Assembly (NCBI RefSeq): GCF_000002075.1
Contig: NW_004797520.1
Coordinates: forward strand, 304,072 to 368,071
Source: Aplysia californica
Taxonomy: Eukaryota
DNA length: 64,000 bases
Direction of reading: 5' to 3'
Shown: in pieces, positions 6,701-60,369 of the stretch
Layout: each line of letters opens with the position of its first letter
Position numbering within the stretch: position 1 is the first letter of the stretch
Notes under the pieces: generated by a model
Databases searched by the model: none
What the model was told of the DNA's origin: nothing
What the model saw: the letters and a program-made list of their open reading frames with translations, nothing else
Made by a program: the position numbers and the translations under genes

Positions 6701-9700
6701 ATATGTAAGTTTCTGAAAATGTAGTTGCTGTAGCTGCTTATGATCTCTTTGAAACTTTTTTTCACTGACTGTTGTATACACAAGTTATGAGTGATTGGTT
6801 TGGAATTGTTCCCTTTTTTAGACTGGTCACTTTTATTTTATTTTACTGGTAAAATGGAATAGAAAATTAATCTGAAGCTCGAATAGATGGTTATGAATTC
6901 TTGGGTTTATTTTTTTTTATTATCTGAAACTTTTTACTGATTATTAAATAGCATATTATGTGTAATAAGTGTTTTCAAATGGGTAAATCAAATTTGTCTT
7001 ATTTAGTTGGCTTGAAATTAGGCGTACAACTCTGTTGGAAGTAATCCTGATTTCGTGTGGTCGAGGAAAACAAATAGGTCAGCGGAGAATGAAAGTTTTC
7101 TTCCTGTTTCTATTTGATTGTAAAGAAATGCTGATAAGTTCCTTTATCTGTCTAATTTCTCGCAGCGACCCAGTGGCCTGGAAATGGAGTGGATCTTTAC
7201 GATGTGAGGAGACAATCTTGGTAAGTAATTGACTTCGAAAGTTGAGAAGGCAAAGAGCCGTTAGTTATTCTTCAGTTCAGCATCATTATCACTACTATCA
7301 TTTGTATTTTATCATCATCATCATCGTTATCTTCATCTAGTATAAGGCTCTAAGTATATTGACAATGGAGCGGAAAAAGAGCCTCGCTCTCGCTCTCGCT
7401 CAAAGATTTCTTCGTGGAGTCCACCAGGCCCTTTAAGGNNNNNNNNNNNNNNNNNNNNNNNNNNNNNNNNNNNNNNNNNNNNNNNNNNNNNNNNNNNNNN
7501 NNNNNNNNNNNNNNNNNNNNNNNNNNNNNNNNNNNNNNNNNNNNNNNNNNNNNNNNNNNNNNNNNNNNNNNNNNNNNNNNNNNNNNNNNNNNNNNNNNNN
7601 NNNNNNNNNNNNNNNNNNNNNNNNNNNNNNNNNNNNNNNNNNNNGTCTTGACACACACTTCAAGCTGCTGATGAGACTTCTTAAATTTCTAGTGCTTCAT
7701 GACAGGGTGAAATTGTGCTGATGATAAAGTGTAATATGTTCTATGATGAGACCTCTATATTTTTCTTAAAGAGAAGATAAGATAAGATAAGATACATCTT
7801 TATTGTCCAGATCATGGATGATGGTAAAAATGACTTTCTGTATCTTTCTTTGTTACAGATCAGAAGCCCAGGTCTTTTACTTCTGACTGATGTTTTTATT
7901 TGAGAGAACAAGGGATGTTTACTGTCCAAAGAGATGGAATTAATTTTTTTTTAGTGCAACCTGTAATGTACAATTCATCCAAGTTACAACTTTGTTAGTA
8001 TTCACCTGACTCCAGAGTTCTGTTGCTGACATGACCTATTTTTCACCGGTGCTCTCACTTCACTCGACAGGTACACGCAGGGCTCCAGCTCTCCCAAGGA
8101 CATGATGATCCTGATTGACACGTACGTTGTTTGTGCACCAATCTGTAAATGACTTGGTTGCTTTTAAAGACAAGCGGGCTAACCCAGATTTCGGGGGTTT
8201 TCGAGAAATCTTGACCAACACCAAAAGTGGGCATTGCCCTACCTTTAGGAGAAGTTTGGTTTCATTGGTGTGTATATTTGTTTTGGTTATAGAGAAAACT
8301 CTCCTTGTCTTTTAAAGAAATTGAATAAGGATCCAAAAATTTTACCATCGATTTTCTCAAAACAGCATTTTTCGGGATAGTCCCCTTGTGCTTAAAAGCG
8401 ACCATTTACGTTCTAAAGATTGTTTAGTGGGTAGTTGCTGGGTGCTGTGGTAAGGTTTGCTCCATCTTTCTTGTAAAAATCTATCATCCTTAGCTCTTTT
8501 TCTTTCTTTTTTTTTGGTATGTTTCTTTCTAATCTTTGGCACCTTAATGATCTGTTTGTGGTGCAAGTGCTGTAAAACTTTTACTAAAACTAAAATTTAA
8601 TCACTTTTTGTTCTCACTGTAACAGAGGTAAGGAGCTTTCAAATGCTAAAGGCTGAGCAGCTTTCAATGTCCAACATGTCTACCAGATGAATAAATGAGT
8701 AGTTTCTGTTTGGTGAAACCTAATGGACAGTAATGTTTGCAGGACTAGCCCAGTAGTTGTCTGCCCCTTAACTCTTTTATCTCCGACAAGCCGGGACTAG
8801 CCCAGTAGTTGTCTGCCCCTTAACTCTTTTATCTCCGACAAGCCGGGACTAGCCCAGTAGTTGTCTGCCCCTTAACTCTTTTATCTCCGGCAAGCCGCTT
8901 GCGGTCGGGCACATTCCTTTACCATTTTGAATTTAAATTATTTTTTGGCAATTGCCCAAAACAGGTCTCTTTTTATCGGGATTTCATCATGTTTTGATTT
9001 AAGTTCACTTGTTTTGATTTATTGACCCATTTAGTGGCTTTTTTGTCATTTTTAGATTTAATACGGTAGTGGGTTTGCCCTCTCGGAGATATAGAGTTGA
9101 ACAGTCTGATCTCCACTCAGTGGTTGATATGTTGTGACTGATTGTTGTGAACTTTGAAATGTGTGAGTTAAACAGTCTCACACCCCCCAGGGTAGCTCTA
9201 CTGACTGAAGTGTCTTTAGGCCATTCTCAAAGGGGGGACATTAACATGTTCTTATGCACAGTAGAATTCAGATGGGCTGATTCTTCAATGTCATGATCAT
9301 AACTGCCTGAACTGCAACAGGGAACTGCTGCTTTTTCTATCTTAATCCTTACTATCGTCATTTTTCCTCTACTTCTTTTGTATGTTTGTCACACTCTTGT
9401 GACCCGCTATTTCTGGGGTGCCTTGATAGTCGAAGCAGACTTTATGCTGTTGAAACTGGAGAGGTGAGCAGCGTGAGCATGATTTCCTGTAAGGACTTCT
9501 CTGTTGACATCCACCCCTTGGCGCTGATTGTTGTGAACTTTGAGATGTGTGAGTTAACTGATTGTGAACTTTGAGATGTGTGAATTAACTGATTGTGAAC
9601 TTTGCTGTTGGCAGGAGTGGCAGCACACACGGCCAGTCGCTGCAGCTGATGCAGAACGCGGTCAAGTCCATTCTGGATACGCTAGGGGAGAACGATTTTG

Positions 9701-12700
9701 TCAATATTGTTTCAGTAAGTAGTTGTCTTTGGAAACTTTGTTCAGTAAGTAGTTGTCTTTGGAGACTTTGTTCAGTAAGTAGTTGTCTTTGGAAACTTTG
9801 TTTACTCGGACCACTTGTCTAGACTTTGGAGAGATCTGAAGGAAATATTATAAATGCAAGAAATTGCATGCAAGACATTTTTTCCGTCGTTGGTCCCAAC
9901 AGAATTTTGAATTTTATGAAGGCCATTGGCCTTTATGGCAACTTGTAAAGTGAAACAATATTGTTAAAAAATTGTTTTTGTTATTTATACAAGTTGTTTT
10001 AAATCGTCAATATATTTACACCGAATTTTAGTATTTTAGCATTTTAAAGTCTAATTGTCGACCAACCGTGCAGTGAACTGTTGCGAATGCTACCAACTTG
10101 TGTTTCACAGTTGCGAGCGCCGTAAAACCCTATACTGTACTATACTTGGAAGGTTTGGATTATTTTTGTGTGGAGGGAAGGGCAGTGCTGGTAGGTCCTC
10201 CCTTTTTATTTTTTTAGATTTGTCATTTTTGTCCATTGCTTCATACTTTTCCTGCGCTAAATGGCCACAATTATGTTGATGTGCTTCTGTTGAAAGCTCG
10301 GAAGATGATAAAGTGTCTGTTCATCGTGTAATTAGATGGTGAAGTCATGACTTACACATATATGCATTTGGGTGGTTTGTGGCTGTTCTGGTGCTCCTTC
10401 TGTCCTGTCAAACGTCTGTCTTCCTTATCTCTCCTCCTTCTGTCCTATCAAACGTCTGTCTTCCTTATCTCTCCTCTTTCTGTCTTATCAAACGTCTGTC
10501 TTCCTTATCTCTCCTCCTTCTGTCCTATCAAACGTCTGTCTTCCTTATCTCTCCTTCTGTCCTATCAAACGTCTGTCTTCCTTATCTCTCCTCCTTCTGT
10601 CCTATCAAACGTCTGTCTTCCTTATCTCTCCTCCTTCTGTCCTATCAAACATCTGTCTTCCTTATCTCTCCTCCTTCTGTCCTATCAAACGTCTGTCTTC
10701 CTTATCTCTCCTCCATTTCTTTGTATGCTAATCTCTTGTAACACCTCTTGTCTTCAGCACTTACATGACCTGTTTGTCATGGAAGTTCCGTGAAACTTTT
10801 ACTGAACTAAAACTTGCAGCTTTCAGGGTTGATGGTTTTTCCTTCCTCAACTTAAGATGCGTGTCTATGGTAATGAATGACTTAAATAATCAAGTCTAGC
10901 TCTTTTTTTTAAAATGCGCATAAAAATGTGAGAGGGGAGAGACCCAGCACATCTCACATGGCAGGTAGTGAAGGAATTTTCTTGCATTCTTTCCTCTTCA
11001 TTGTTTTTTGTGACCCTCCAGAATTTGAACATCAAAAATGGAAGAAGAAATTTTTCTTACGTTCAAGATGCATTTTAATTTTGTAATTCCACAGTTTGCA
11101 GAAAAAGCGACATTTGTCAGCAAATGCTTGAACCATACGGCCTTTGTGCAAGCTAACTACAGAAACAAGAAGGTAAAGTTAAATTTCGTTGGTGGTTGGT
11201 GGGTGCTCTGGGGTGGTTTGCTTCTTTTTTCCTATGAAACATCTATGGTCTTTATCTCCCCTCCTTTTTTTTTGGTGTTTGTTACTCTCATGTGACACCT
11301 CTAATCTTCGGCACTTGTATGACCTTATTGTGGGGCAAGTGTCGTAAAACTTTTACTAAAACTAAATTTAAATTGTACTCAGTGCATTATATAAATTTAC
11401 GGAATGCCTCGTTCACTGAGTATCTTTCTTTTACTTTGTAGCTGGTAACACAGCCTTTTTTTCTAGATTGACAGGAGATGTGTTTTAGTTGTGTGGGTTT
11501 TTTTCTTTCAGTTGCTATCTTTCCGTGGTTGTTGTCCTTGTACGACTTCATCTGGAATGAGGGGTTCACAGGAAAAACGGGCATAGTCACAAGATGGAAA
11601 TTGGAAGGCTTTCAATTTTTAAAAGGATGTGTCGCTGAAATTTCAATCAATCTTGTTTAGAGTCACTTTTTGGGTTCTGAAAAATTTTAATGTGTCCCAC
11701 ACGCTCATATATGACCTTATGCAGTTGCGAGCACCGTAAAACACTTACCAAAAATATAAAGAAAACTTCTTTGGGTGGATTGTTCTTTATACTCGTAGTA
11801 TACATTTGGTTGTTGGTTGTTCTGTTGTGCTTGATTTCACCGTCTGTATTTCACCAGTTGTAAGGGAGCATGTTATTCTGTCACCTAGGGATATTTTTCT
11901 CCCTGTAAAAGAACAATCTACCCAGAAAGCGAAGATAGACAAGATGTCCTGAAACTTTTCAGGCCGGCTGAAAGGTGTTCGAATCCCTGACTTCTTTAGA
12001 GATGCCCAAACTCCTTAACTTTAATGATCACTAATGTTTGAAATTAAATTGCCTTCGCTAGTTTTCATTTGAAAAAGAGCAGCTTTACTTATTAAATCAT
12101 GTTTGCACTGAAAGTGCAACTTTTTGATTGCTTATCCATGGATCATATTTGATTTTTAAACTGCTTCTGTCTTCGCAGCAACTGGAAAGAGACGTCGACC
12201 GTCTCAAAGCGCTCGGACAAGCAGACTTCAGCGAAGCTATCAAATTTGCCTTTGAAAAGTTCATTGAGGTCAGTGAAGCTGGTTGCTACATGTAAGAGTA
12301 ATGGTGTTTCTGTCAGTATCGTGGGCTCGTCTGGAAGGGGAAAAAACGGTTTATGCTCTGTAATGGTTTTCCCCTTACACGGGGTGCCCGCCCATTACGG
12401 CTGGATTGGGCATATCACCCGACTCGGTCGCCTGAAACTGAAAACAAACGCGTTATTTGTTTTTTTAGGCGACCGAATCTGGCGATCGGCCGGACCCAAC
12501 GATCCCATCCGTAATGGGCACCCCGTATTTCCTATCACACATTTATTATCCTTATCTCCCCTTTCTTCCTGTTACTCTCTAGTAAAACCTCTAATCTTAG
12601 GCACTGGTATCGCCTATTTGTGTTGCTAGTGCTTATAAGCTCTTATTGAAAAAGCTCTTATTGAAACTAATACATAGGTGGTTGGTGGGTGCTCTGGTGT

Positions 12701-15700
12701 GGTTTGCTTCTTCTTTCCTATCAAACATCTATTGCTTTTATCTCCCCTCCTTCTTTTTTGTGTTTGTTACTCTCTTGTAACACCTCTAATCTTCGGCACT
12801 TATATGACAACCTTATCGTGTTGCAAGTGCCGTAAAACTTTTACTGAAACTAAACTCCCCTTTCTTCTTTTTTTTGTCTGTTAGTCTTTAGTAAAACCTC
12901 TTCTAGGGGGCTCTAATGGCCTAGAGGTTAAGGTGTTGGCCTCTCAATCAAAGGTCCCGGGTTCGAATCCGGGTAACGACTGAAAAATTTTCTTCTCTAA
13001 AATTGTCTCCTTTCACCTCCTTTCCTGCTCTCTAACAATGTTCTGTTGTCTGCTTTCATTTCCACTTTCTGCCCCCACCCCCTCACCTCCTTTGCCCCCT
13101 CCTCTGGGCTCCTGACTCTTTCTGCAGCCTTTCTACTGCTACTCCTTGGCTCCTCCTTACTGCTGTCTTTCTGCCACACCCCTGATCTTCTGGTAGGAAA
13201 GATCTACACCTAGCCTTCTCGGACAAGGGCGAAAAATCTCGGAGGGCCCGTGTGCAAGTTGCGCACGTTAAAGATCCCTTGGTGGTCTAAAATCGATAAG
13301 AGTAGGCTTCGGCCGCCACCCGGGCAAAATTCAAAATTTCCTACCAACTGAAAATATTAGGTGTGTCCCGCGCGCTCATATGACCTTATGCAGTTGCGAG
13401 CGCCGTAAAACACTTTACAAAAACAAACAAAAAAACCTCTAATCTTAGGCACTAGTATTACCTAACAGTGTAGCAAGTGCCTTGAAGCTCTTTATTGAAG
13501 TGGGTGGTTGGCGGGTGCTCTGGTGTGGTTTGCTTCTTCTTTCCTATCAAACATCTATCGTCCTTATCTCCCCTTCTTCTTTTTTTTGTTTGTTGCTCTC
13601 TTGTAACACCTCTAATCTTCTGGCGCTCATATGACTTTATGCAGTTGCGAGCGCCGTAAAACCTCTACTAAAACTAAAAGTCTTTATTAAAACTAATACA
13701 AGACTGAACAAAGACAACGTTTGTGGTTGACAGTTCAGCCAGAATGAGACGAACGACGAGAACAACATCGGCGCCAACTGCAACAAGGTGATCATGTTGT
13801 TGACCGACGGAGGCACCGACAACGCCAGGGACGTGTTCAAGAAGTACAACTGGGACAATAACAACAAAACGGTGAGTGAGTTGTCCCCCTTGCCTTGACA
13901 CTTTGCCGATCACAAGGCTCATATAGTAAAAACCTTTTGCCATCAAAGACCAAGGCATTTTGGGGAAAATTCCAAAGAAACTGGGTGATAAACATCGCCG
14001 ATCGGCGAGATGTTTGGAAGTTGGGAATATTGGCAGCCCTGATTTGTAAAGCAACAACTAAAACTGAAACCTAATAGTAAAATGTTTGTCATCATAGAAG
14101 CCATTCTCAAAGTGGGAACATAAACATGTTCTTGTGCTCAGTAGAATTGTAAATGGGCTGATTCATCAATGTCATGCTCACAACTGTGCCTGATCTACAA
14201 CAGGGAACTGCTGCTTTTTCTTTCCTAATCCTTACTATCGTCATTTTCCTCTACTTCTTTTGTTTGTCACACTCTTGTGACCTGCTATTACCGGGGTGCC
14301 TTGATAGTCTAAGCAGACCTTGTCCTGTTGAAGCTAGAGAGGTGAGAGGAATAAGCTTGATTCCGTGTATGGACTTCTCTGTTGACATCCACTCCTTAGC
14401 ACTCATATGACCTTATGCAGTTGCGAGCGCCGTAAAACCTTACTAAAACTAAACCAAAACACTCTGGCATACGTATTACTATTCAGTTTTTGTTCTTCAA
14501 CTTGAATTCGGCTATTGTTTTCTATATTCTAGTTCATACCTTGCTGTTCTATAAGTTTTATCCGAACAAAGTCATCTGTGATGTGTTGAATATTTTCTTT
14601 ATTGCTTCTCTGAGTGTGCTCATTTATGGTCTCCCCACCAGGTCCGTGTGTTTACCTACGCTGTGGGACCCACCCCAAACCCAATCACAGCGGTCAGGTG
14701 GATGGCCTGTGCAAACAGAGGTGAGGAAATGATATGAGTGCTGTGGTTTTGGTACCATCTCTTCCGCAGACTAAAATCCAATCTTTTATTTCTTTGTGAT
14801 CTTTAGTATGTTACAGATAATCTAAGTGATAATAATAATAATGATATTAATAATAATAATAATAATAATATGTAATAATTATATTAATAATAATGATAAT
14901 AATAATTAATATTTAATAATAATTGCATTTAACACTTTGCCATCATATTTTGGGGAATATCCAAAGAAACTGGGTGGTAAACAGGCGAGATGAGGCGGCA
15001 AAGTGGTAAATTGGCTTTTAGAGCCAACAGGTGGCTGTTGGAGCAGGTGTGACTGTACTTTTCCCTGTGTTGTCCTCTCGGCCAGGTTACTTCTCTCAGA
15101 TTCCTGCCATGGGAGCCATCCGAGCCAGAGTCCAGGTAACATCTCTCTATGTGTGCTCTATGTGTGTACTATGTGTGCTCTGTGTGCTCTGTGTGTGTAC
15201 TATGTGTTCTCTGTGTGTTGTGTGTGCTGTGTGTACTCTGGACGTCTGTGTACTACAGACGTTTGTGTGATGACTTTGTTTGTGGTTAAAACAGGGGGTG
15301 GGTGGGTTGTTGTGGGGGGGGGAGGGGTAGATGAACATCAGTGGTTAGAAAAGAGTGTGTGTGTGGGGGGGGGGGGGAAGGGGTATGTGATCACGAGAAA
15401 GGGGAAGGACTCTTTGTGCTGTGGGAACAACAGCAGTAATGGTTATATTTTGTTGCTGTGTGCGTTGGAGAACGTTCAGTGGACTCAATATGAGATGTGG
15501 GGGGGGGGGGGGGGGGAACGAAGAAATGGAAACTTACCCCTAATGTCGGTTGAATCTGACCACGCAGGCTCTTGCTTCGTCCCTCGTTTTTGAGTTGATG
15601 AAAAAGTTGCACTATGATATTTCTTGTGTTGTAAGGATGAACACAATTATTATAGATTCCTTGACTGATGGGATGCAGCAATTGATTTTTTTCCGCTCAT

Positions 15701-18700
15701 ATTAGGAACAGATGGGTCTGGGTTTTTTGGTTTATTCATTAATGGGGTTGTTTTATTTTTTTCTTAAACTGAGAAGATGACAGAGTTGTCGAATAATTGT
15801 CGCAAGCAAGATCACAGAAATCTGTTGCTTTATGTGTTTTTAATTAATAATCATTGGAAAATGCTAGATAGTCCATTTTATGCATATTTTCCTCCATCCA
15901 ACTGTCCTATTTCAAACTTATTCACTCTGTGAACCCAGTAAATATAAATCAAGTATTTTAGTTCAGCTCTCATGTAGTCGATGTTTGAAAAGTTCGTACT
16001 CCGAGATCCCTTGCACGATTAATTTTTAAAAACACATTTTGTCGTGGTTTTGATTTGATTAAACAGCTGTAAATATAAATAGTTATAGGTGATGCTAATG
16101 TTTAATGATGATGATTCTTATTTTCAGCGCAGCGTCATGTGTGAACTCAAATTTCATGATCGTACCTTGTTTCAGAAATGAGTATCATATAACTTGTTGG
16201 TGGGTGGTTGGTGGGTGCTCTGGTGTGGCTCGCTCCTTCTTTCAAGTCAAACATCTCACCTATCGTCCTGATCTCTCCTTTTTTTGTGTGTGTTATTCTC
16301 ATATAAAACCTGTAATCTTTGACACTTTTGACCTCTTTGTGTTTCAAGTGCTGTTCAACTCTAACTAAAACTAAAACTAAACTGGGTTGATGACCCTCTG
16401 TGGTATTTATGTCAACTCATGAGTCTATCTTTTTGTCTGTTTCATTTGTTCTTTTTCGTGGGTGGTTGGCGGGTGCTCTGGTATGGTTTGCTCGCTCCTT
16501 CTTTCCTACCAAACATCTATCGTCCTGATCTCTCCTCCTTTTTTGTGTTTGTTAATCTCTTGTAACACATCTATTCTTCTGCACTTGTATGACCTTATTT
16601 TGTGTTGCAAGTGCTGTAAAACTCTTACTAAAACTAAACCTCTTCTTTTTCATCTTTCTTTACCTGTATAATGCCAGCAGTCGTTGTTGTGCTTTCCCAG
16701 TAAGCTTTTAACATATTATTATCCAGTGGGTGGTTGGTGGGTGCAGCGATGCAGCTTGTAACTTGTACCTTTGTTCTGTGTTTCTGTTAATGCTTCTGTT
16801 ACTGTTTCTATTATTCTTATCTGCTCCTGGCCACTATGGCTGTCATGAAGCTGACTTTGTGACAACTGCCTCTCGGCTCTCTGACTGTGGGCGTTAGGTG
16901 GACACTCTGGTCTGGTTCGCTACTTCTTTCTATCATGCATCTATCATCCTTATCTCTCCTCCTTCTTTCCGTCGTATGTTACTCTCCAGTAAAACATCTA
17001 ATCTTATTTGTTTTGCAAATGCCATAAAACTCCAACAAAAATTAAATTAGACTTGTCACTGGTTCATAGCTTCTCTGGTCGCAATCATTGTATTGGCCAA
17101 TGATGTGTACATCAAAGCGGCATTTTATTGCAATGTTCGGGGTCCATAAAATATCGTCTGGATAAGATTCAGTGAGGGTCTGAACAGAGGAAAGCTGTGT
17201 TCTAGCTGACACGATGCCATCATGTTATTGTGACTTCAAGTATTTGGATATGTTTGTGTGGGTTGTTCGTGGATGTTCTGGTGTGGTTTGCTTGTTCTTC
17301 TTTCCTATCAAACATCTATCGTCTTTATCTCCCCTCCTTTTTTTTGTGTTTGTTACTCTCTTGTAACACCTCTAATCTTTGGCACTTATATGACTTTATA
17401 GTGTTGCAAGTGCCGTAAAACTCTTACTAAAACTAAAAATTGGACATGTTTGTCACTTGTGAATTTAATGTTAATCTTCTGCAATGTTTGAACTGAAGAG
17501 TTCCAAGAAAATAGTGTTGCCGACACTGTAGAACTGTAAACAAATTGATTCCTTGTTATATTTCTTTCCACATTCCGAAAAATTAAGTCCATTGATGCTT
17601 TGCATTATATCTAACCCTGCATTAACATAGGGACTGATGCTACCAGCATTCTCTGTAGTTTCAGACGGTTACAAAGTATTTACTGAAGTTACAAAGTATT
17701 CACAGAAGGTTACAAAGCATTCACAAAAGTTATAAAGCATTCACAAAAGTTATAAAGTTACAAAGTATTTACTGAAGTTACAAAGTATTCACAGAAGGTT
17801 ACAAAATATTCACAGAAGGTTACAACGTATTCACAGAAGGTTACAGAAGGTTACACAGTATTCACAGAAGGTTACAAAGTATTCACAGAAGGTTACAAAG
17901 TATTCACCGAAAGTTACAAAGTATTCACAGAAATGGAACCTGCAAGGGAATGGGGATGACGCTTTATGAATTTTTTTTTTTGGTTTTAGTCTCTTCTGAG
18001 ATTCCATATGAGCAGAATCCGACCGTATTGTAAGTCAGAACTATTATGAGATTATATTTTTTATGGTGACTTTCATGTAATTTATTTCTCAGAAAAGATG
18101 AGTAAGTACAATACATAGTGTCAGGGGCACCTTTACACCATTGTCCTTGTAGGAAAGAAGCAAAATCTATTTTTCAAAAAGGTGGACACTTTGATTTCAC
18201 TGTGGATATGTACATGACTTTTGTCACCGAATGTGCGGATTGGTATTTGGATGGATGAGTGAGTGGATGGTGATCGTGGATGTGTAAAGACTGAATGAAC
18301 AAAAGTCATAGCTTTATATCATGCTACAGGATCTTGTCCATACCTGGAATTTGGGTGTTCTTTTAGAGAGAGTTATGTACTCCATTTTGTCTGAAAATTG
18401 GTATTTGTGAACTTCAGGTTTATTCTAGAAATAGATGAGAGGAGAGAATAACAGTTTATAACAAAGAGTGAGCTTAAGAAGAAGTCACATTTTCAATGTT
18501 TAAAAAAATGGAGATGCGAGTAGAAAGCACCGAGGTGGCGATTTGTATAACTCTTCTGTAAGACTAAGAAAAGATTGAAACAGTTAGTGCTAACATTGGA
18601 TAATGAAGATGTGAGATTCAGGATGTTGTACAAATAAGAGATGAGAATAGAATAATGCTATGGCACTTCCATGAAAGTGATTTTTCTTGCATGAACATTT

Positions 18701-21003
18701 GTATAACTTTTCTTTACGTGTTGTAAAAGATTTATAGTGCAATTACGCGTAACTGAAGATGTGAGATTCAGAATGTTGTATAAATATGTGAAGAGAATAG
18801 AGTACTGCTATAGCACTTCAATGAAAGTGCTTCTTCTTGCATGTAAATTCGTATATTTTTTCTTTAAGTGTCATTAAAGATTTATAGTGCAAACCTGACG
18901 TGTAAATGAAGATATGAGCTTCAGGATGTTTGTATGAATATGAGTATGAGTCATTATTTAGTCCAAATATGGTTCTGGGAGAATTCTTAAGAATCAAGAT
19001 GTGTGGTTCCCTTGTGGTGTTTGTGTGCAGAACTGCGATGTTGAAGCTTTCTCGCTCTCTCTCTGTTTCCCTTCTACGCTGCTTGAAATGTGCAAAATGG
19101 CAGGACTATGTCCTCGTTCTAGAGCGGCCCCTGGCCTTGGCCCACATAGAACATGAAATGTGGACCAGTAGCCACAAAAATGTGTACTACGCAAAAGGCC
19201 AGAACCCGGTATAACCTTCCTCCCATCTCGGTTCATCACTCGTCTTCTTCTCTTTGCTTGACTTTAATCGTTTCTATTGGGCTGTTCATCTTGGATTGCT
19301 TCAGTTTTGGTTCTTTATCTCTACAATACCTACAATATTATTATGCTATTTTCATTCAAAGTTGAAGGAGAAAGTGAACAACAGAATTGTTTTTATTCAG
19401 AACGAAACAAATGTAATCATAATGAAGTTTGGTTGTTCTCGAGAACAACAGGACATTTTGTAGCCCTTGCTAATGAATCATATTTTGGCAAGAAGGAAAC
19501 ACAGACATACTCACTGTCCCCTCCCCTTCCCCATCTCACACACACCCAAACAGAAAACAGACGAAGTCATGGAATGATGAAAAGGTTAGGAATATATCCA
19601 AATCTCAATAACAGTGGCACCCAAAGAGGTGTTTCAGTTGCACACATGCTTTTCAATGAGAAAAATGTAAGATTTATTAACTTAACAGGTTTTTTTGGTA
19701 GGCAAATGTCCTTTTTTTAAGATAAGAGCTTGTCTAGAAGGATGCGTGTAGTATTGCTGTCCAGCTTGCTTTACGTGTATCATCATATACCTAGTTATTT
19801 GAGGGAGTAGCATGGTATTTTTTGTCGGTGGGTTTCCAGATTGCGTATCTTTTGATGATTGGGTGCAGTTAATCATGCTATGCGTATAATATATTTATGT
19901 ATTATATATATTATATATATCTATATATATACTTATTTGAATATATCCTCTCTTTTTTTTTTCTCAAGCGTACATGGTACATATTTTTTTTTTCTTCTCA
20001 TTTTGGTCCATACAGGATAAGGATGCTTTTATGGGAGTTGTTGCTTCTTCATGATGCTCATTGCGGTTCTTTCAGTAAATACAGCTCTCCATAACTATAC
20101 ATATATATATAATATACATTATATATACACTTTCCTTTTTTTCCTTCTCTTTTCCTCTAAGCCTGAGACTCTCCTCTTCTGTGCCTGTCGCTGAGCATAA
20201 CCACTGCCTGACAAAAGCACACAGCAGACTCTGCAAACGCTGGCTCACACTGCACCAGTTTGACTGTCACTTGCTCTTTTCACCACGATGCAGTGCTTTG
20301 TCCAGTCATAAAAAAGAAAAAAATAGTGAAGGTTATGAAGAGGCCTTTGCCGTCCTGTAAATGAAATTTCAGACTTTGAAAATGGTTTTGATTACCTCCT
20401 TATGGCTGCCTCTGTCTGTCAACAGAATTTGAGGAAAAATTGTCTTGCTCTCAAAAAAATTTCACCTGGGCAAGAAACATCAGCAGAAAGAAGAACAATT
20501 TTTTTTTTTCTTATTTTTTGTTCTGAACTAATAATTATTCATTTTGGGGAATTATTCAAGATGAACTTTAACCTGTTGCCATATTTTTGTTTCATTTGTA
20601 CCTTCTTGTTTTGTATGTTTTTTGTGGGTTTTTTTGTCAGTATAATGGTTTCCCATTTTGGCAGTCTTAACATCCGACTGAGGCAGTTGTACAGGCTCTT
20701 TAGGCTGTGGTTCTTCTCGTCAGTCAAGTGGTGTAAATTGTTTTTGGTGGCGCGTTGCGAGTGTGTGCCATGATGTGACCCCATGTGATATGTGCTTGTC
20801 CAATCTCCCAGGGCTACACGGACTACTTGAGAGCCACTCTAGAAAGTTATGGCGTGCAGGAAGAAAATTGGGAAGCGACCTATGACCCTAGGGTATGAAG
20901 GCCTGAACTAATCTCCCCACACCAGGCCTCGTGGCTGGGGAAGCTCAGTTGCTGAAGGCACTAACTCAATCCCTTTCTTTTGAGCGTTTTTTTTTTTGTT
21001 GAA

Positions 21004-21034
<31 letters not shown>

Positions 21035-24000
21035 CTGGCATCGGTCTTGATTTCTCACTTAATGAATTGACAAGGACTTGGAATAATGCTTTTGCTTTTT
21101 GAGTTTGAAGAAATAACAACAGCTTTCATAAGTTTTTGTTTTACGCACGGCATTTGATATTGGCAGAAACATCAGAAATACTCTTTTTGTTGTAATGATA
21201 GAACAATATTTAAATAAAATAATTACATAACAATGTAAAATAATTACATAACAATGTTTTGTTAAGGTATAGGCTACTTAATTTTTATTTAAAAAAAAAA
21301 AAGCCATGACTGTATTGTCACGAAATTTTCCTAAATTTTTATCGTGTTATTATTATATCACAGTATTCTGAAACTAGAAAGAATGTAGGTTACCTGTGTG
21401 GGTTTGAGTGCTATTTTCAGGATGGAAAGTTTTAGCACCCATTGATATAGAAGTTATTGAGTAGCACTTTAGTCAAGCATTTGTTGTTGAGATTATTCCA
21501 AGTCTAGCAGTTTCTCCATAGCATTTGATGCATTCTTTTTGGTTTTATCTTGCCTTTTAATCTTTAACTTTTGCAATATCACATCATCCAGCTAAATTAA
21601 CACCACTAAAACCACTCATTCTTGTTTGCTATTCAGTCCATGGTACAAGTAAAGAAGAGAGATTTGGGATGGATCTAATCCCAAATTTGTTGGATCAGTG
21701 ATTATTCCTAGATTGTAGTGAAACATCTTATGCAAGGAAATCATTTGAATGTCGTATTGCCAGGGTATTCTTGGAGGAAAGATAACTTTGAAAACATTCT
21801 TTGTGATGTTGAAGAATTTACGTCTTCCTTCTTTATTTGGTGTAGGGTTGTCAACTGTAATTTTTTAAAAAGTAAATGGTTAGAACAGACCAGCATAATA
21901 GGGTTGTTCTGTGAGCATCTGAACAGAGAAATCGAGTAGCAAACCAAAATCACCTCACAATGTCTGTACAAAATCTGGCACTTGAAGAAGAAGAAAGAAA
22001 TCATAAGTAATCTATCTGTATGTCTCTTGATTTTAATTTCTCTATTAGAGACTAAAAAAATGTTCTTTTTTTTTTATTGCACTTCTTTTGTTAAGGTAAA
22101 TTGGTCAGCTGGAAATTTTTCTTTGACTTTGATCACCCTCAGTTTAAAAGGATTTTTGTCATGATTTAGAAAATTGATTGCCTCTAGGGTGGTGTTCATT
22201 TTTTTCATCCTTATTTCTGAATTAATTTTATTCAGTCTCATTTCATGTGCCGAAAGATCTGAAGGTTGTTACTTTGGCCTGGTTTTGGTGGGAAGGGGCC
22301 GGGGAGTGCCCTGGTTAAATTTTTCTATTGCCAAGATCTGGTTCACTTACTTATTCTGTCCTTCCGTCGTTTTAGTTCTTCTCCAAGACATTTTCTGTTT
22401 GATTATCCTTTTCATTTTTCTTTTGGAGCCGCTAGCATTGCAGCTTTTCTTTGAACTGACGACATGTTTGATGCTGTTCCTTGACCGCTTCTCTCCCTCT
22501 GCTTGGGATTGCCGCAAGCGTTTGACCTCTGTCTGCTGAGTGTGTGGGCTGGAATGTCCCTTTTGCTTCTGTTTTCTTCTTTGAGATCTCCAGAAACTTA
22601 AGGGGGAGGAGGAGGAGGAGGAGAGAGTATGTAGGAGGCAAAAAGAGACAGTGAATAAACAATGGAGGAGAGATTATAGGAGGCAAAGAGAGACAGTGAA
22701 CAAACAATAGAAGAGATTATAGGAGGCAAAGAGAGACAGTGAACAAACAATAGAAGAGATTATAGGAGGCAAAGAGAGACAGTGAACAAACAATGGAGGA
22801 GAGAGATTATAGGAGGCAAAGAGAGACGGTGAACAAACAATAGAGAAGAGATTATAGGAGGCAAAGAGAGACGGTGAACAAACAATGGAGGAGAGAGATT
22901 ATAGGAGGCAAAGAGAGACGGTGAACAAACAATGGATGAGATAAAAAGGTTGGGGGGAGAGTGGCAGTCTTTGGAAGTGCAAGAGTAAAGGAGTAACAAA
23001 TACAAGAGGAAAGGAGTAACAAATACAAGAGGAAAGGAGTGACTTTTCTGAAAAGAAGCACTAGTTTAAACGTTCCTTCCACATGATATGTTGCGTCTGT
23101 ATCTATCTGTCGGTCTCTTGGTTTTTCAATAAGGCGAAGTCCTGCTACTGGTGACTATGAATATACTGTTCCAGCCGCGCTAACAAAGCCGAGGATTTTT
23201 CTGTTCTGAAGCCCTACATTCACAAATGGGAATTATATCAGTGTCTTTTTTTAGATGTTGAGGAGTAGGGACTCTGAGGGCTGGGAAAAAGGTTGGTGGG
23301 GGCAGACACATTCTCCTCTCACATGTTGTCTCCCGTGTGACAAGACAGGCTAAACTTTGTGGAGTAAAGTTTTCAGGAGTGGCAAAAAACCTGTTTTGTT
23401 TTATTATGTGGCTGGTGGGTTCTTCGGCTTTATTTCTAATGTTTGAGGAGAATTCCTAGTCAAAAGTCAGACCTGTTTCTGACTGAGCATAAGAAAAAGA
23501 TCGTTTACTATCAAACTCGTCAAATTAGAAAGGAAAAAAAAATTGTGCGGGTTATCGAGTCTTGTCACAGGACAATGATGTTGTGTTTGACATGTGGGTA
23601 TCCAGTTTTTGATGTGAAGGAGGGAAGAATAGATTGAAAGTTTTAAATAAGTTAAACTGGCAGACTGAGACTAGTTGGTCAAAAGTTGAGATGGCAGAAC
23701 TGGAGTAAATAAAAGGCTGAAAGACAAGTGTGCCAGGGGAGAGGAAGGAAGGAATTCACGCCAGGTTCACCATAGGAATGAGTGGAAAGAGGGGATTTAA
23801 GCCTATGTTCCTCTTGTTTTCATGTAGGCATATACACACACATACACATGCACGTGAGTGCGTGCACACAAATACACAGTTGCACACGGGAGCACATACA
23901 TACAAATATGTGTACACACTCGTACACACACACACACTTCACACACACACACTCAAATCAACTTGAGCACACACACTCTTGTAGAAATAAGCCTCATTCT

Positions 24001-28953: not shown

Positions 28954-28987
<34 letters not shown>

Positions 28988-49900: not shown

Positions 49901-51532
49901 CACAAAGTATTGTATATATTTGTACTTTCCTTTTGTTTCACACAGCGGAGGAGGATGGGGAGGATGAGGAGAAGCCGTGCGTTGAAGCGATGCAGCAATA
50001 TTATCTGGAGCAGCGGGACCCCCGGCCGATGACTTTTGGCGTCCAGTGTCAGAACTGTACCAGGTAATTACGGTTTTCATCTATCGTGGGATGTGGGTGT
50101 TTGGCGGGTGCTCTGGTGTGGTTTGCTTCTTCTTTCCTATCAGACATCTATCGTCCTTATCTCCCCTTCTTCTTTTTTATGTTTGTTACTCTCTTGTAAC
50201 ACCTCTAATCTTCTGGCACTCATATGACCTTATGCAGTTGCGAGCGCCGTAAAACCTCTACAAAAACAAAAACAAACCAGGGTTTTGGTCAATCGTGCGA
50301 TGCTGAATGTTGTTCTGACTTCAGCTGTCTTCTTTTGATATCTTTGTACCTCACCTTCCTTTCACATCCCATGTGTCTTTAGGCCATTCCAAAAGGGGGG
50401 GGCATTACCATGTTCTGTTGCACAGTAAAATTTTTAATGGGCTGATTCATCGATGTCATGCTCATACCTGAGCCTGAACTGCAACAGCGAACTGCTGCTT
50501 TTTCTTTCCTCATCCTTACTATCGTCTTTTTTTCCTTAACTTCTTTTGTATGTTTGTCACACTCTTGTTACCCACTATTTCCGGGGTGCCTTGATAGTGG
50601 AAGCAGACTTTGTGCTGTTGAAGCTAGAGAGGTGAGCAGAGTAAGCCTGATTCCCTGTAGGGACTTCTCTGTTGACATCCAAGTTGCGAACACCGTAAAA
50701 ACTTACTAAAACTAAAACTAACTATCCTGGGCTATATGCTCACCTCTTTCCAACGATATCCCATGTGTTAGTTCACAATCAAAGTCACTTTTCCAAGCAC
50801 TTTTAGACCCCTTCCTCTCTTTCTCTTTCCTTGTGGCCCATACCCTGAGACCGGTGTGACTTCATGTGTTGAATGTGTGTTGTTGTGCTGTCTCTGATCA
50901 CCAGGAATTACACAGTGGTGAAGATGAGGCACACCAACCTGCTGTTCATCGTCACCGACCCCATGTGCGAGGAGTGCACGGAGGAGTATCCCCCACTATC
51001 CCAGGCTCCCCGGGAGGTGTCGGAGGAAGAGGAGGAGAGCATCATCTGTGAGCTGGCGCAGAATCCACGCAAGAGACTCCAGCCTTTTGGGTGCTATCAC
51101 GCTGACCCCAGGGTGAGTACATTGGGTCGATAGCGCCGTAAAACACTTACTCAATCAATCTATCAAAAACCAGGATGAGTGCTGGGGAAGGAGGTGGGAC
51201 CCAAAGCTTCTTTTCTGGTTATTAACCCCTTCAGTGTGGGTGGTTTGCGGGTGCTCTGGTGTGGTTTGCTTCTTCTTTCCTATCAAATGTCTATCGTCCT
51301 TATCTCCCCTTCTTCTTTTTTGTGTTTGTTACGTTCTTGTAACTCCTCTAATCTTCGGCACTTATATGACCTTATTGTGTTGCAAGTACCGTAAAACTTC
51401 CTAAAACTTAAACTTTTTTCTCCACAGGAGAACAGCAAACAGTGTGGCTGTGCCGCCCTCCGGGTTTCCTATTTGTCGATATTCCTAGTATGTTTATCTG
51501 TCGTGCGGAGTTATCTATCGGACAGTCGGTGA
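637..51532 (+). CDS. CACNA2D: Voltage-dependent calcium channel subunit alpha-2/delta (37 coding exons, ~1081 aa)
   Basis: Phase-consistent GT-AG exon chain giving signal peptide, VWA_N ([27 protein letters not shown]), VWA ([32 protein letters not shown]), Cache segments ([40 protein letters not shown]), YDFQAAC, delta region (TNLLFIV) and a hydrophobic GPI-type C-terminus. Needs a -1 correction in G7 at 43713-43719. Paralogue number not assignable by eye. Confidence 0.96.
1896..1968 (+). CDS. CACNA2D: alpha2delta exon 2
   Basis: ttcag|(D)[24 protein letters not shown]|gtaagt. Confidence 0.88.
1969..2207. mobile_element. Foldback/MITE-like element with ~40-50 bp imperfect inverted arms around a (GGGGTA/GGGTTA)n core
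   Basis: aagaaaatttgggaggacttctgtaacgagcgaccac (1983-2019) is the imperfect reverse complement of 2152-2189; hexamer array 2047-2120. Confidence 0.65.
2895..3035 (+). CDS. CACNA2D: alpha2delta exon 3
   Basis: TYKEK...[17 protein letters not shown]|gtatga. Confidence 0.9.
3850..4222 (+). mobile_element. 5'-truncated non-LTR retrotransposon 3' end (I-group-like ORF2 CCHC zinc knuckle)
   Basis: [19 protein letters not shown]...[18 protein letters not shown]; (AAC)n tail; 12-bp TSD atcaaagggtat at 3838-3849 and 4223-4234. Confidence 0.88.
4345..4404 (+). CDS. CACNA2D: alpha2delta exon 4
   Basis: [20 protein letters not shown]|gtaagg. Confidence 0.9.
5013..5148 (+). CDS. CACNA2D: alpha2delta exon 5
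   Basis: [10 protein letters not shown]...[12 protein letters not shown]|gtaagt. Confidence 0.93.
5297..5920. repeat. Minisatellite: ~11 x 38 bp followed by ~5 x 40 bp related unit
   Basis: actgatatttatgtattgaataactggagcattttatt, then acagatatttacatgttggaaccactggagcattttttgt. Confidence 0.95.
6325..6456 (+). CDS. CACNA2D: alpha2delta exon 6
   Basis: [43 protein letters not shown]. Confidence 0.95.
7166..7220 (+). CDS. CACNA2D: alpha2delta exon 7
   Basis: [17 protein letters not shown](W)|gtaagt. Confidence 0.93.
8071..8121 (+). CDS. CACNA2D: alpha2delta exon 8
   Basis: [16 protein letters not shown](T)|gtacgt. Confidence 0.95.
8164..8396. mobile_element. ~235-bp non-autonomous DNA element, TTAA-flanked (Kolobok-like); further copies at 42746-42976 and inverted at 52641-52870
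   Basis: Three dispersed copies; termini (a/g)gacaagcgggcta ... tagccccttgtgct next to TTAA-like sites. Confidence 0.75.
8742..9101. mobile_element. TTAA-type MITE whose left junction is triplicated (3 x 52 bp)
   Basis: ttaa-ctcttttatctccga ... tcggagatatagag-ttgaa inverted termini; 52-bp unit starting at 8742, 8794, 8846. Confidence 0.65.
9190..9520 (+). mobile_element. ~330-bp interspersed repeat family (other copies 14099-14455, 50375-50720, 59807-60062, internally deleted copy 6128-6245)
   Basis: Shared ggccattc.caaagggggg...ggaactgctgctttttct...ggacttctctgttgacatcca; three copies end in the gccgtaaaac-type tail. Confidence 0.85.
9615..9714 (+). CDS. CACNA2D: alpha2delta exon 9 (VWA, MIDAS SGS)
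   Basis: [33 protein letters not shown]|gtaagt. Confidence 0.95.
9709..9800 (+). repeat. 3 x 30-bp tandem repeat containing the exon 9 donor
   Basis: ttcagtaagtagttgtctttggaaactttg; GT at 9715, 9745, 9775. Confidence 0.95.
10368..10815 (+). mobile_element. SINE-like element copy with internal ~42-bp tandem expansion
   Basis: ctccttctgtcctatcaaacgtctgtcttccttatctctc repeated about 8 times between the element head and tail. Confidence 0.85.
11095..11172 (+). CDS. CACNA2D: alpha2delta exon 10
   Basis: [26 protein letters not shown]|gtaaag. Confidence 0.93.
12179..12268 (+). CDS. CACNA2D: alpha2delta exon 11
   Basis: [30 protein letters not shown]|gtcagt. Confidence 0.92.
12905..13434 (+). 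mobile_element. tRNA-derived SINE with Meta-like central domain
   Basis: A box tggcctagagg, B box ggttcgaatcc, core ggcccgtgtg...gcacgttaaagatccc, tail gcgctcatatgaccttatgcagttgcgagcgccgtaaaac plus A-rich end; aaaacctct on both flanks; pyrimidine-rich insert at ~12998-13190. Confidence 0.8.
13500..13679 (+). mobile_element. Representative copy of the dominant ~175-bp SINE-like family (gtgggtggttgg...gccgtaaaac-(taaaac)n)
   Basis: Other + copies start at about 8427, 10368, 11188, 12677, 16200, 16458, 16893, 17257, 32775, 33127, 33494, 37525, 38692, 39282, 40407, 41025, 41796, 43437, 44347, 47371, 49381, 50093, 51235; variable-length TSDs visible for several. Confidence 0.9.
13734..13871 (+). 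CDS. CACNA2D: alpha2delta exon 12
   Basis: ...[34 protein letters not shown]|gtgagt. Confidence 0.95.
14642..14720 (+). CDS. CACNA2D: alpha2delta exon 13
   Basis: [26 protein letters not shown]|gtgagg. Confidence 0.95.
15086..15135 (+). CDS. CACNA2D: alpha2delta exon 14
   Basis: (G)[16 protein letters not shown]|gtaaca, phase 0. Confidence 0.93.
17665..17932. repeat. ~21-bp minisatellite
   Basis: ggttacaaagtattcacagaa repeated. Confidence 0.9.
19104..19208 (+). CDS. CACNA2D: candidate mutually exclusive exon 15a
   Basis: ggcag|[35 protein letters not shown]|gtataa; 105 nt, phase 0-0; Y2, V5, L6, R8, P9, W20 shared with 15c. Confidence 0.8.
20812..20892 (+). CDS. CACNA2D: candidate mutually exclusive exon 15b
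   Basis: cccag|[27 protein letters not shown]|gtatga; 81 nt, phase 0-0; Y2, L6, W20, Y24 shared with 15c. Confidence 0.7.
22630..22937. repeat. ~40-46 bp purine-rich minisatellite
   Basis: gagattataggaggcaaagagagacagtgaacaaacaat repeated about 7 times. Confidence 0.9.
24885..25170. repeat. Tandem repeat ending in the polypyrimidine tract of exon 15c
   Basis: ggtggatgggaatgtg..cttacacgtgtgtgtcttca(atgtgtagtgtgttctcttccccttca) x5. Confidence 0.9.
25178..25261 (+). CDS. CACNA2D: alpha2delta exon 15c (most family-like variant)
   Basis: tcaag|[28 protein letters not shown]|gtattt; matches the family pattern EYLxVLxRPMV...WTNxYxD. Confidence 0.92.
28817..28867 (+). CDS. candidate alternative exon resembling exon 16
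   Basis: tctcag|[17 protein letters not shown]|gtatta; 51 nt, phase 0-0; LxxYN[KR][TS]xxS shared with exon 16. Confidence 0.35.
29947..29952 (+). CDS. candidate 6-nt microexon (Asp-Leu)
   Basis: ttttactgtacag|GACTTG|gtaaga, frame-preserving. Confidence 0.45.
30369..30425 (+). CDS. CACNA2D: alpha2delta exon 16
   Basis: [19 protein letters not shown]|gtacgt. Confidence 0.93.
31006..31083 (+). CDS. CACNA2D: alpha2delta exon 17
   Basis: [26 protein letters not shown]|gtctgt. Confidence 0.93.
31610..31684 (+). CDS. CACNA2D: alpha2delta exon 18
   Basis: [25 protein letters not shown]|gtgagt. Confidence 0.95.
32124..32207 (+). CDS. CACNA2D: alpha2delta exon 19
   Basis: [28 protein letters not shown]|gtatgt. 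Confidence 0.9.
32180..32475 (+). repeat. ~4.5 x 66-bp tandem repeat of exon 19 3' end plus donor
   Basis: gaagacaaggatgatgcgat.aattcg|gtatgta; GT at 32208, 32274, 32340, 32406. Confidence 0.95.
32674..32745 (+). CDS. CACNA2D: alpha2delta exon 20
   Basis: [24 protein letters not shown]|gtaagt. Confidence 0.92.
33336..33397 (+). CDS. CACNA2D: alpha2delta exon 21
   Basis: [20 protein letters not shown](R)|gtgaga. Confidence 0.92.
34334..35375. mobile_element. ~1.04-kb non-autonomous DNA transposon, TTAA TSD (piggyBac-like)
   Basis: ttaa-ctcattcgcta ... tagcgaatgag-ttaa, perfect 11-bp TIR; no transposase ORF. Confidence 0.8.
35442..35509 (+). CDS. CACNA2D: alpha2delta exon 22
   Basis: [22 protein letters not shown]|gtaatt. 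Confidence 0.87.
36064..36112 (+). CDS. CACNA2D: alpha2delta exon 23
   Basis: [15 protein letters not shown](W)|gtaagt. Confidence 0.87.
36852..36940 (+). CDS. CACNA2D: alpha2delta exon 24
   Basis: [29 protein letters not shown]|gtaaga. Confidence 0.85.
37708..37789 (+). CDS. CACNA2D: alpha2delta exon 25
   Basis: (W)[26 protein letters not shown]|gtaagg. Confidence 0.87.
41730..41795 (+). CDS. CACNA2D: alpha2delta exon 26
   Basis: [21 protein letters not shown]|gtgggt. Confidence 0.88.
41796..41972 (+). mobile_element. SINE-like copy inserted at the exon 26 donor
   Basis: TSD agtcccaaaaggt (41785-41797) / agtcccgaaaggt (41973-41985). Confidence 0.85.
42366..42469 (+). CDS. CACNA2D: alpha2delta exon 27
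   Basis: [34 protein letters not shown]|gtatgt. Confidence 0.9.
42562..42728. repeat. 11-bp tandem repeat
   Basis: catgtgttcta repeated about 15 times. Confidence 0.95.
43166..43270 (+). CDS. CACNA2D: alpha2delta exon 28
   Basis: [34 protein letters not shown]|gtaagg. Confidence 0.88.
43579..43758 (+). CDS. CACNA2D: alpha2delta exon 29 (apparent +1 frameshift in G7)
   Basis: [15 protein letters not shown]...[23 protein letters not shown]|gtgtgt. Confidence 0.88.
44004..44074 (+). CDS. CACNA2D: alpha2delta exon 30
   Basis: [23 protein letters not shown]|gtaagt. Confidence 0.93.
44100..45022. repeat. ~59-bp minisatellite interrupted by a SINE-like copy (44347-44695) with a multiplied tail
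   Basis: tgtaacacacagggctatcaggaccattgcctgctcattgctgtactgtctc units. Confidence 0.9.
45573..45651 (+). CDS. CACNA2D: alpha2delta exon 31
   Basis: [26 protein letters not shown]|gtaagt. Confidence 0.93.
46190..46660. repeat. ~40-bp minisatellite
   Basis: ttattttcaaggtgacttcctgattactaagaagcatatg repeated about 11 times, decaying toward the exon 32 acceptor. Confidence 0.95.
46826..46887 (+). CDS. CACNA2D: alpha2delta exon 32
   Basis: [20 protein letters not shown](W)|gtgcgt. Confidence 0.9.
46942..46988 (+). CDS. candidate alternative exon replacing exons 33+34
   Basis: ctgcag|[15 protein letters not shown]|gtgagg; phase 2 to 1 like exons 33+34; FDLCEWFL resembles FNLYSWLF. Confidence 0.4.
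47963..47989 (+). CDS. CACNA2D: alpha2delta exon 33 (27 nt)
   Basis: ccacag|AFVNFNLY|gtatgt. Confidence 0.82.
49325..49356 (+). CDS. CACNA2D: alpha2delta exon 34 (32 nt, predicted alpha2/delta cleavage region)
   Basis: ttcag|[10 protein letters not shown](A)|gtaagt, phase 2 to 1. Confidence 0.8.
49946..50063 (+). CDS. CACNA2D: alpha2delta exon 35
   Basis: [38 protein letters not shown](R)|gtaatt. Confidence 0.92.
50905..51112 (+). CDS. CACNA2D: alpha2delta exon 36
   Basis: [24 protein letters not shown]...CYHADPR|gtgagt. Confidence 0.95.
51428..51532 (+). CDS. CACNA2D: alpha2delta exon 37 (last coding; GPI-signal-like tail)
   Basis: [34 protein letters not shown]. Confidence 0.9.
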   Translation, partial: ENSKQCGCAALRVSYLSIFLVCLSVVRSYLSDSR

Positions 51533-58524: not shown

Positions 58525-58533
58525 TGTGTGTGC

Positions 58534-58608
<75 letters not shown>
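58525..58608. repeat. (GT)n microsatellite
   Basis: Direct observation. Confidence 0.97.
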
Positions 58609-58611
<3 letters not shown>

Positions 58612-60194
58612 AGTGAGCTGTGGTTTAGCTGTGTGATATATACAATTAATGTGTTACCTTTTCCCCTAATCATTAATGTTTAAAAATTGCTCTTTGTTTC
58701 CAACATTCATCTTTTCCTTGTTTTGTGGCAATATCAATTTAACAATTTATTCACTTTTTATTCGTATATTTGACTTTGTAACTAATATTTTTCACTGTGC
58801 ATTTTGGGTTGTTGTTTTTTCACAGTAGTTTTCAATTACAACAGATGTTGAATTATTTTAAAGATTTTTTAAGCAAGAAATGTTGAGACTTATGATGGAA
58901 TTTAAATATTGCTTGTCACGGCGCAGGCTGCATAATTTATTGGGACAATATTTAAGGGGGGAAAATTGGTTTCAAGGTTACAGTTGAAGTTGAGGGCATT
59001 CTGTGTTCATTTGTTTTACGAAATAATGAATAGTAATACACAGTAACAACTTTGGTCTACGCGATAAGAAATAGTAGTAGTAATACACATTGACAACTTG
59101 GTCATCCAATTGGACAGCCTTGCCTGTCAGTGTCAACGTTCTTGATTACTCTTTGAAGAGAACAAAATCCAGATTTTAGTTTTGTTTTGAAGCACTTGTG
59201 CTGTGGCTTACTGGGGTGAAGTTAAGAGAGAAAGTAGACTGAGATAAAGTAGACTGAGATAAAGTCGACTTTCTTTTAATTTTATGTTGAAAGAAACTGT
59301 TTTTTAAGTTTTATGCTTTAAAAAAAAAAAATTGTTCTAAAGGTTTTTTATCATTAGAGTGCAATGTTTGTTATTTTTACACCTCACCCGTGTGCAATAA
59401 TTGTGTGATGCACCCCACTATTTATATTTATGAAATAACAATATACTTGGGGTTGTCTTTGCCCGTTTGTGTACAAGATTCCTCAGTCTAAGTCACTTTT
59501 ATTGCCTTTTGTTGGGCAGATGTGTACCTGGCATGCATACAAAGCCTCTTCTTCTCATTATTTCTTCACACGGATTGCTCCCTCCCCCCTCCCCTCTCCC
59601 TCCATTCATCCACCCTATTTCCAATTCCATGAATAAACTGTTATTCATGTTTTTCTTTCACTGTGTTGAGTTTTATTTCTTGTTTTGTTGGTATTGTGTT
59701 GACGAAGAGAAGTTAATAAGAATAGCCTTTTTTTTGTTTCGTGATTTAATACAGCCAGAAATTTTTGTGAAACTCAAACAGAGTGAGTCCCCCCCCCCCA
59801 ATCAGGGCAGTGCTACTGACTGAAGTTGTCTTTAGGCCATTTCCAAAGGGGGGATATTAACACGTTGTTATGCACAGTAGAATTGTAAATGGGCTGATTT
59901 ATCAATGCCGTGCTCATACTGTGCCGAAACAACATAGGGGGAACTGCTGCTTTTTCTGTCCTCATCCTTACTATCGTCATTTTTCCTCTACTTCTTTTTG
60001 TATGTTTGTCACTCTCGTCGACTGCTATTTCCGGGGTGCCTTGATAGTTGAAGCAGACTTTACTTACGTATTTCAACAGCACTTAAGAAACGGATAACAG
60101 TAAATAACACTGTTGTTGCTTAGGCCAAATAGAAACAGTTTTTTTTTGTCCGTCAGTGTCTGAAGTTGATCACTGTTCCTGCAGAGTATTGTTT

Positions 60195-60369
60195 TCGTTT
60201 TAGAAAGAGTTTTACGGCACCTGCAACACAATAAGGTCATATAAGTGCCGAAGAATAGATTTGTTACAAGAGAGTAACATACTCAAAAAAGAAGGAGGAT
60301 CGATAAGGACGATAGATGTTTGATAGGAAAGAAGGGGCAAACTGCACCAGACCACCTGCCAACCACCCA
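60195..60369 (-). mobile_element. Only minus-strand copy seen of the ~175-bp SINE-like family
   Basis: Reverse complement of the consensus; TSD cagagtattgttt / cagaatattgttt. Confidence 0.88.

Follow-up and report, generated by a model that had tools for sequence, protein, structure and literature searches.

Sense-biased orientation of a LINE-tailed retroposon family and its relatives in genes of Aplysia californica

Do retroelements that settle in introns record the direction in which the host gene is transcribed? Strand bias among intronic retroelements usually favors the antisense orientation and is read as a footprint of selection. The question is raised by a 64,000-nucleotide stretch of the Aplysia californica genome (hereafter the window; contig NW_004797520.1, positions 304,072 to 368,071), in which an earlier note had described a repeat of ~175 bp resembling a short interspersed element (SINE), strictly sense-oriented inside one gene and crowded at splice sites. 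We located the window in the 927-Mb animal genome and identified the host gene, on the + strand, as encoding a voltage-gated calcium channel alpha2/delta subunit, based on Pfam matches to VWA_N and VGCC_alpha2. A profile search of the window returned 27 insertion events of the repeat, hereafter family A, in alpha2/delta introns, 19 of them near full length and all on the + strand. Every copy listed in the note proved real, with a unit length of 177 bp. The single minus-strand copy indeed lies past the two AATAAA signals downstream of the gene (58393 and 59632). Past the end of the window, strand skew becomes negative, as expected for a convergent gene, and all 7 family A matches in the following 20 kb are on the minus strand. 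The change from + copies in the gene to minus copies in the next 20 kb, together with the flip in skew, indicates that copy direction tracks the local transcription unit.

The bias extended beyond this gene. We examined 60 independent kinesin/myosin stretches (~519 kb readable), picked blind to the element and oriented by Pfam exon matches. Family A occurred in 84 sense and 14 antisense copies, a ratio of about 6:1, although a few antisense calls may fall outside genes since some stretches run past the last Pfam exon. The earlier word "strictly" thus holds in the window (27/27) but not as a general rule. Two related families, B and E, and the long interspersed elements (LINEs) described below were also predominantly sense (17:1, 21:1 and 4:0, respectively). 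By contrast, two SINEs with a transfer RNA (tRNA)-like head were unbiased: family C at 8:9 and a second one at 4:6. The orientation difference between families A and C was significant (p=0.001). Two families resembling miniature inverted-repeat transposable elements gave sense:antisense counts of 35:32 and 3:7.

To orient loci elsewhere, we used a flank classifier, a 4-mer strand model applied with repeats masked, which was correct for 57 of 60 stretches at 10 kb and 139 of 152 pieces of 3 kb; on new loci, only scores beyond 5 were counted. Family A was sense:antisense 20:2 (n=29 loci) and 22:1 (n=29), family B 24:3 (n=29), the young LINE 17:2 (n=20) and young family C 12:9 (n=28). A Pfam scan of the flanks gave a direction for 3 LINE loci out of 20, all three sense, and for 1 family C locus out of 28. 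Ingi-like elements (5:3) and RTE elements (2:2) showed no clear lean by flank score. Families A, B and E and the LINE are therefore sense-biased, whereas the tRNA-headed SINEs are unbiased.

Family A consists of a G-rich head, a CT-rich body, a stem-loop and a (CTAAAA)n tail. It starts sharply at GTGGGT, with no base conservation upstream. Target-site duplications (TSDs) could be identified at 47 of the 111 full copies, with a mode of 11-13 bp and weak base preferences. The TSDs had been said to end often in GT or TGT; their ends do lean toward T (0.43) or G (0.34), but 30 of the 47 do not overlap the GT start. The TSD at 17257 was confirmed at 14 bp, and the 22-bp TSD proposed at 49381 is apparently a pre-existing tandem duplicate next to a 13-bp TSD. 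Such TSDs of varying length, together with a 3' tail of simple repeats, fit a non-autonomous retroposon mobilised by a LINE. As the note had indicated, family A has no B box: compared with RNA polymerase III (Pol III) box patterns, every candidate had at least three mismatches and the best had 3, versus 0 in a tRNA SINE. Family A thus falls outside classical Pol III SINEs, in which internal boxes lie in a head of the tRNA, 5S or 7SL type. An Rfam scan of the window gave no match at gathering score, and family A had no Rfam match that would point to a snoRNA-derived or ribozyme-headed element, although a new class of ribozyme is conceivable. The fold z-score was -0.4, and the head is predicted to form a two-tier G-quadruplex. 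Extrapolation from 18 full copies in 213 kb gives a genome total of roughly 80,000. Family A is a frequent source of tandem arrays, built from its middle (unit of ~40-52 bp) or tail (43-bp unit), as seen in L055, L065 and L066 and at 10369-10812 and 44346-44693 in the window.

We searched for the partner LINE through reverse transcriptase (RT) and RNase H matches and found two intact families, each with an open reading frame 1 (ORF1) of ~500 aa and a 1226-aa ORF2 containing endonuclease, RT and RNase H. One of them, NimbA, ends in the tail common to families B and C and to the family A subfamily A2. The A2 tail and the NimbA 3' end share 87% identity over 60 nt (E=1e-11), and 2 of 7 pairs of the shared stem are compensatory. 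NimbA-type copies are young: all 150 scored matches had 92-100% protein identity. Domain order and end structure place these LINEs as probably Nimb-like; the RT tree that we made comprised sequences from this genome alone. Judged by its sequence, then, family A is a LINE-mobilised non-autonomous retroposon whose 3' stem-loop is common to intact Nimb/I-like LINEs. Truncation of a LINE 3' untranslated region (UTR) was rejected as its origin, the match being confined to the last 55-60 nt and the start sharp rather than ragged. Among the families inspected, Ingi-like, AAC-tailed and RTE elements were rejected as partners, as their tails differ.

Family B, of ~400 bp, has a discrete C-run head, a middle homologous to family A and the same tail. 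Family C is a tRNA-headed SINE carrying the family A tail and is the sole family with a tRNA match. Family E has a G-rich head like that of family A and a different tail. A further element at 16727-16880 has the GTGGGTGGTTGG head with a different body and tail, suggesting that the clan holds more families. In its layout (C-run, stem, G-rich loop), the 5' end of the partner LINE agrees with published Nimb-derived heads. In the two Nimb families sampled, the match of family A to the LINE 5' UTR was weak and of low complexity (p=0.03 and 0.24), and a 13-nt match of family B to the LINE 5' end was not significant. In copies L151-L160, the loop contains a G-run and TATAAAT, and an H-type pseudoknot is possible by eye. 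Tandem 5' modules are present in two of these copies, L151 and L158, and in L151 they come from both LINE families.

The kind of element itself is already known; it is the insertion polarity of the family A clan that is unusual. Among described elements, the LP-SINEs of gastropods and bivalves (Matetovici 2016, PMC4758252) come closest, and by sequence family A appears to behave like one: both are short, flanked by TSDs, LINE-mobilised and without a tRNA head, and pectinoid LP-SINEs likewise have a CT-rich tract after the head. LP-SINEs are recognized by homology of their first ~70 bp to a Nimb LINE 5' end and by a head that acts as a Pol II promoter, whereas family A has no C-run and matches the LINE 5' UTR weakly. 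In the Nimb clade (I group), LINEs have an ORF1 of ~500 aa, an endonuclease-RT-RNase H ORF2 and a 3' stem-loop shared with partner tRNA SINEs, as here (PMC4758252, PMC11481361). The accessible text of these two sources contains no report of a sense bias, unlike our data; the words "orientation" and "intron" are absent from the main text of the LP-SINE paper (PMC4758252), and the bivalve SINE survey reports genic accumulation with no strand analysis in the text available (PMC11481361). A literature search, with most subscription journals outside its reach, found no report of sense-biased Nimb elements.

Human elements offer a parallel, with one LINE serving both Alu, a Pol III SINE, and SVA, a passenger outside the Pol III class: Alu is mobile without ORF1 protein (ORF1p), whereas SVA and pseudogenes require it (PMC3287187). 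Human elements lean toward the antisense (template-strand) orientation in genes (PMC10030826), whereas family A leans toward sense by about 6:1. In Dictyostelium, the ORF1p of the non-LTR element TRE5-A binds TFIIIB and is proposed to choose the insertion site (PMC3159450). TRE5-A therefore provides a model for placement by ORF1p contact with the transcription machinery, although it occupies a fixed position upstream of tRNA genes and the sites here are spread over introns of genes transcribed by RNA polymerase II (Pol II).

Age and density are informative about whether such a bias arises at insertion or afterwards. Among 71 full family A copies in oriented genes, all 20 that were less than 7% diverged were sense. 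The 10 antisense copies were older than the sense copies (17% versus 9% divergence, p=0.04), the opposite of what slow purging would leave. In kinesin/myosin genes, family A reached 15.8 sense and 2.7 antisense copies per 100 kb, compared with ~3.4 per strand per 100 kb in weak-skew DNA, a "non-genic" class that is defined by weak skew alone and into which 20% of true gene stretches fall. Sense density in genes was 4.7 times the weak-skew density per strand, or 2.9 times when random stretches alone were used (n=27), and antisense density was 0.8 times; the pattern is mostly one of sense gain. We rejected a bias from target sequence or composition, since 48% sense was predicted from the target motif and no more than 64% from local composition, compared with 88% observed. 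A rule that the T-rich strand faces sense failed because LINE ORF2 is A-rich, and local hopping inside a gene was rejected because same-gene copies shared rare changes no more often than chance predicts (261 pairs, p=0.27).

The sense bias holds beyond the window (84:14) instead of falling near 50:50, and transcription-coupled targeting, one of several possibilities raised in the note, is the best-supported reading. In target-primed reverse transcription, a sense copy implies that the first nick and priming occurred on the template strand. A Nimb-like ORF2p would copy family A RNA through the shared stem-loop, as the common tail suggests. RNAs without tRNA heads may move in ORF1p-containing complexes drawn to elongating Pol II or the splicing machinery, and Pol III SINE RNAs may use ORF2p alone and insert in either direction. 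The sharp 5' end of family A RNA could come from an internal Pol II start, cleavage at a 5' splice site or an exonuclease halted by the G-rich head. Passengers here divide into tRNA-headed and other kinds much as Alu stands apart from SVA and pseudogenes, a parallel that, together with the TRE5-A contact, favors ORF1p-linked insertion. Our confidence is evenly balanced as to whether ORF1p-linked, strand-specific, transcription-coupled insertion by the LINE complex explains the sense bias. A broader proposal is more tentative, and we consider it doubtful: a widespread animal LINE clade, steered by ORF1p, would nick the template strand in genes that Pol II is actively transcribing and feed promoter-less retroposons with G-rich heads, which would be released from pre-mRNA at GUGGGU and reinserted into introns in the orientation that keeps them transcribed.

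The bias described here is strong and in the sense direction, the youngest copies already show it, and among elements with one LINE tail it depends on the RNA head. The head-dependent split amounts to a natural test of whether transcription direction is read by a LINE complex, and the young intact LINE copies make targeting directly testable. Family A is also large, marks gene direction and is able to replace splice donors.

Several observations weigh against insertion of this kind, including the makeup of the weak-skew class noted above. Every copy counted is a survivor of selection, and the contrast between young and old copies by category was borderline (p=0.053). Family C is unbiased despite carrying the same tail, so the model needs the putative ORF1p step. 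The effect may not be specific to Nimb elements: an L2/CR1-like LINE family (L252-L280) was 14:2 sense (n=25, with weak flank scores), and one RTE family was 8:2 in the Pfam-oriented stretches, where another was 3:3. In addition, 110 kb of random genic DNA contained no antisense family A copy (p=0.03), suggesting some antisense loss, and enhancer-like GAA motifs are abundant in antisense family A (2.8-4.4 per 100 nt versus 0.8 in family C).

The last two points also favor a rival in which insertion prefers genes but has no direction and antisense copies are lost immediately through selection, an explanation that we regard as possible but unlikely. Candidate routes of loss are GAA-driven cryptic exons in family A, the AATAAA and acceptor signals that an antisense LINE 3' end would bring, or pairing with the many sense copies into double-stranded RNA. 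The antisense LINE end does contain acceptors scoring 11.1 and 9.7, and its 3' UTR holds one AATAAA. However, splice signals in antisense family A are weak (acceptors at most 3.1, donors at most 4.8), below those of sense family A and of antisense family C, which is tolerated with a donor of 10.3. Family B is enhancer-poor and yet 17:1, so a separate reason would be required for each family. The antisense copies are older, not younger, and a 3-5-fold genic preference, absent in family C, would also be needed. The idea in the note that selection acts against the purine-rich orientation is likewise weakened, because antisense family C is equally purine-rich (0.58 versus 0.59 for family A), has stronger antisense splice signals and is unbiased.

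A second rival, which we consider improbable, is that the endonuclease favors one replication strand and that genes are co-oriented with forks. Human L1 has such a preference (PMC10030826), and this would explain several LINE families together, but family C would share the endonuclease and is unbiased, and orientation switches over a few kb where the gene ends.

The note had also proposed crowding at splice sites, and the distances that it gave were correct. In the window, 7 of 27 family A copies have a splice site no more than 30 nt away (3.1 expected under a same-intron null, p=0.02), and 5 of 27 begin at most 30 nt from a donor (null 1.5, p=0.012). For other genes, we trained an exon predictor without the window, where it found all but one of 35 acceptors and all but three of 35 donors and made 7 extra calls, and applied it in the 60 stretches to predicted introns with fewer than 50 N, which covered 43 of 71 sense events. 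None of these 43 copies lay within 30 nt of a predicted donor, and the pooled count was 4 of 80 (4.7 expected), so donor crowding is local to the alpha2/delta gene. At acceptors, sense copies ending at most 100 nt away numbered 16 of 43 in the 60 stretches (7.3 expected, p=0.0004), 11 of 39 in a third set (8.2 expected, p=0.14) and 7 of 27 in the window (5.0 expected). Pooled, 27 of 80 ended at most 100 nt upstream of an acceptor, where 15.4 would be expected (p=0.0006), a modest excess of ~1.7-fold that rests on predicted exons and on a cut-off that was one among several tried. Two copies located at a donor, window 41796 and L087, recreate it with their own GTGGGT; in the window copy this is now the sole good donor (score 9.1; displaced donor -1.7). 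About one donor-rebuilding case is expected by chance, and we read these two as rescued survivors. It is therefore very improbable that the spliceosome aims the element at splice sites through its donor-like head and branch-point-like tail, as the donor excess failed twice, the acceptor excess is not significant in the third set alone or in the window, two thirds of copies are mid-intron, and the LINE and family C show no acceptor excess (small n). Under ORF1p-linked insertion, recruitment of the complex to the splicing machinery would also yield a mild excess just upstream of acceptors.

Table 1. Positions of the host gene and of element copies in the window.
Feature	Positions	Strand	Remark
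Host alpha2/delta gene	637..51532	+	~37 coding exons, one early exon undefined
Family A	8427..8595	+	Old copy, 21% diverged
Family B	9185..9530	+	Others near 6117-6244, 14105-14453, 50372-50717, 59786-60062
Partner LINE (probably Nimb-like)	9816..10130	+	5'-truncated 3' end
Family A	10369..10812	+	Internal tandem expansion
Family A	11188..11366	+	Donor 15 nt away
Family A, two neighbouring copies	12521..12854	+	One partial, one full
Family C	12905..13430	+	Unbiased control
Family A, subfamily A2	13500..13679	+	Young, 1.8% from majority; tail almost matches NimbA LINE tail
Family A, four copies	16200..17440	+	16200, 16458, 16886, 17258
Family A	28596..28655	+	5'-truncated, tail alone
Family A, three copies	32775..33671	+	32775, 33127, 33493
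Family A, six events	37525..41180	+	37525, 38693, 39282, 40407, 40718, 41028
Family A	41796..41973	+	Inserted precisely at splice donor
Family A, three events	43430..47516	+	43430; 44347 with tandem tails; 47379
Family E	47656..47785	+	Approximate
Family A, three events	49381..51412	+	49381 compound, 50093, 51236
Family A	60193..60370	-	Single minus copy, past both AATAAA, where skew switches toward likely convergent next gene

The exon model of the alpha2/delta gene was built from Pfam matches, reading frames and splice signals. A homologue search with the host protein found none, and one exon queried against PDB gave no useful match. Two polyadenylated RNA sequencing runs contained almost no reads over the alpha2/delta exon bins. 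Reads from the element in these runs had mixed flanks and no pile-up of starts, although unstranded 101-nt reads from polyadenylated RNA cannot reveal a 177-nt RNA. An extra G in a G-run at 43713 disrupts the frame of one exon; since contigs from two other runs lack it, the probable cause is a mistake in the assembly or a variant. At 3850-4165 lies the 5'-truncated end of an I-group LINE, with (AAC)n as its tail and a Pfam zf-RVT match, from a family other than the partner. The 11 kb from 17440 to 28590, in the two longest introns, are free of family A, whereas shorter introns are crowded. Further in-frame exon candidates lie at 20812-20892 and 26953-26988, and two exon-like stretches that begin alike (19104-19208 and 25178-25261) are possibly duplicated alternative exons.

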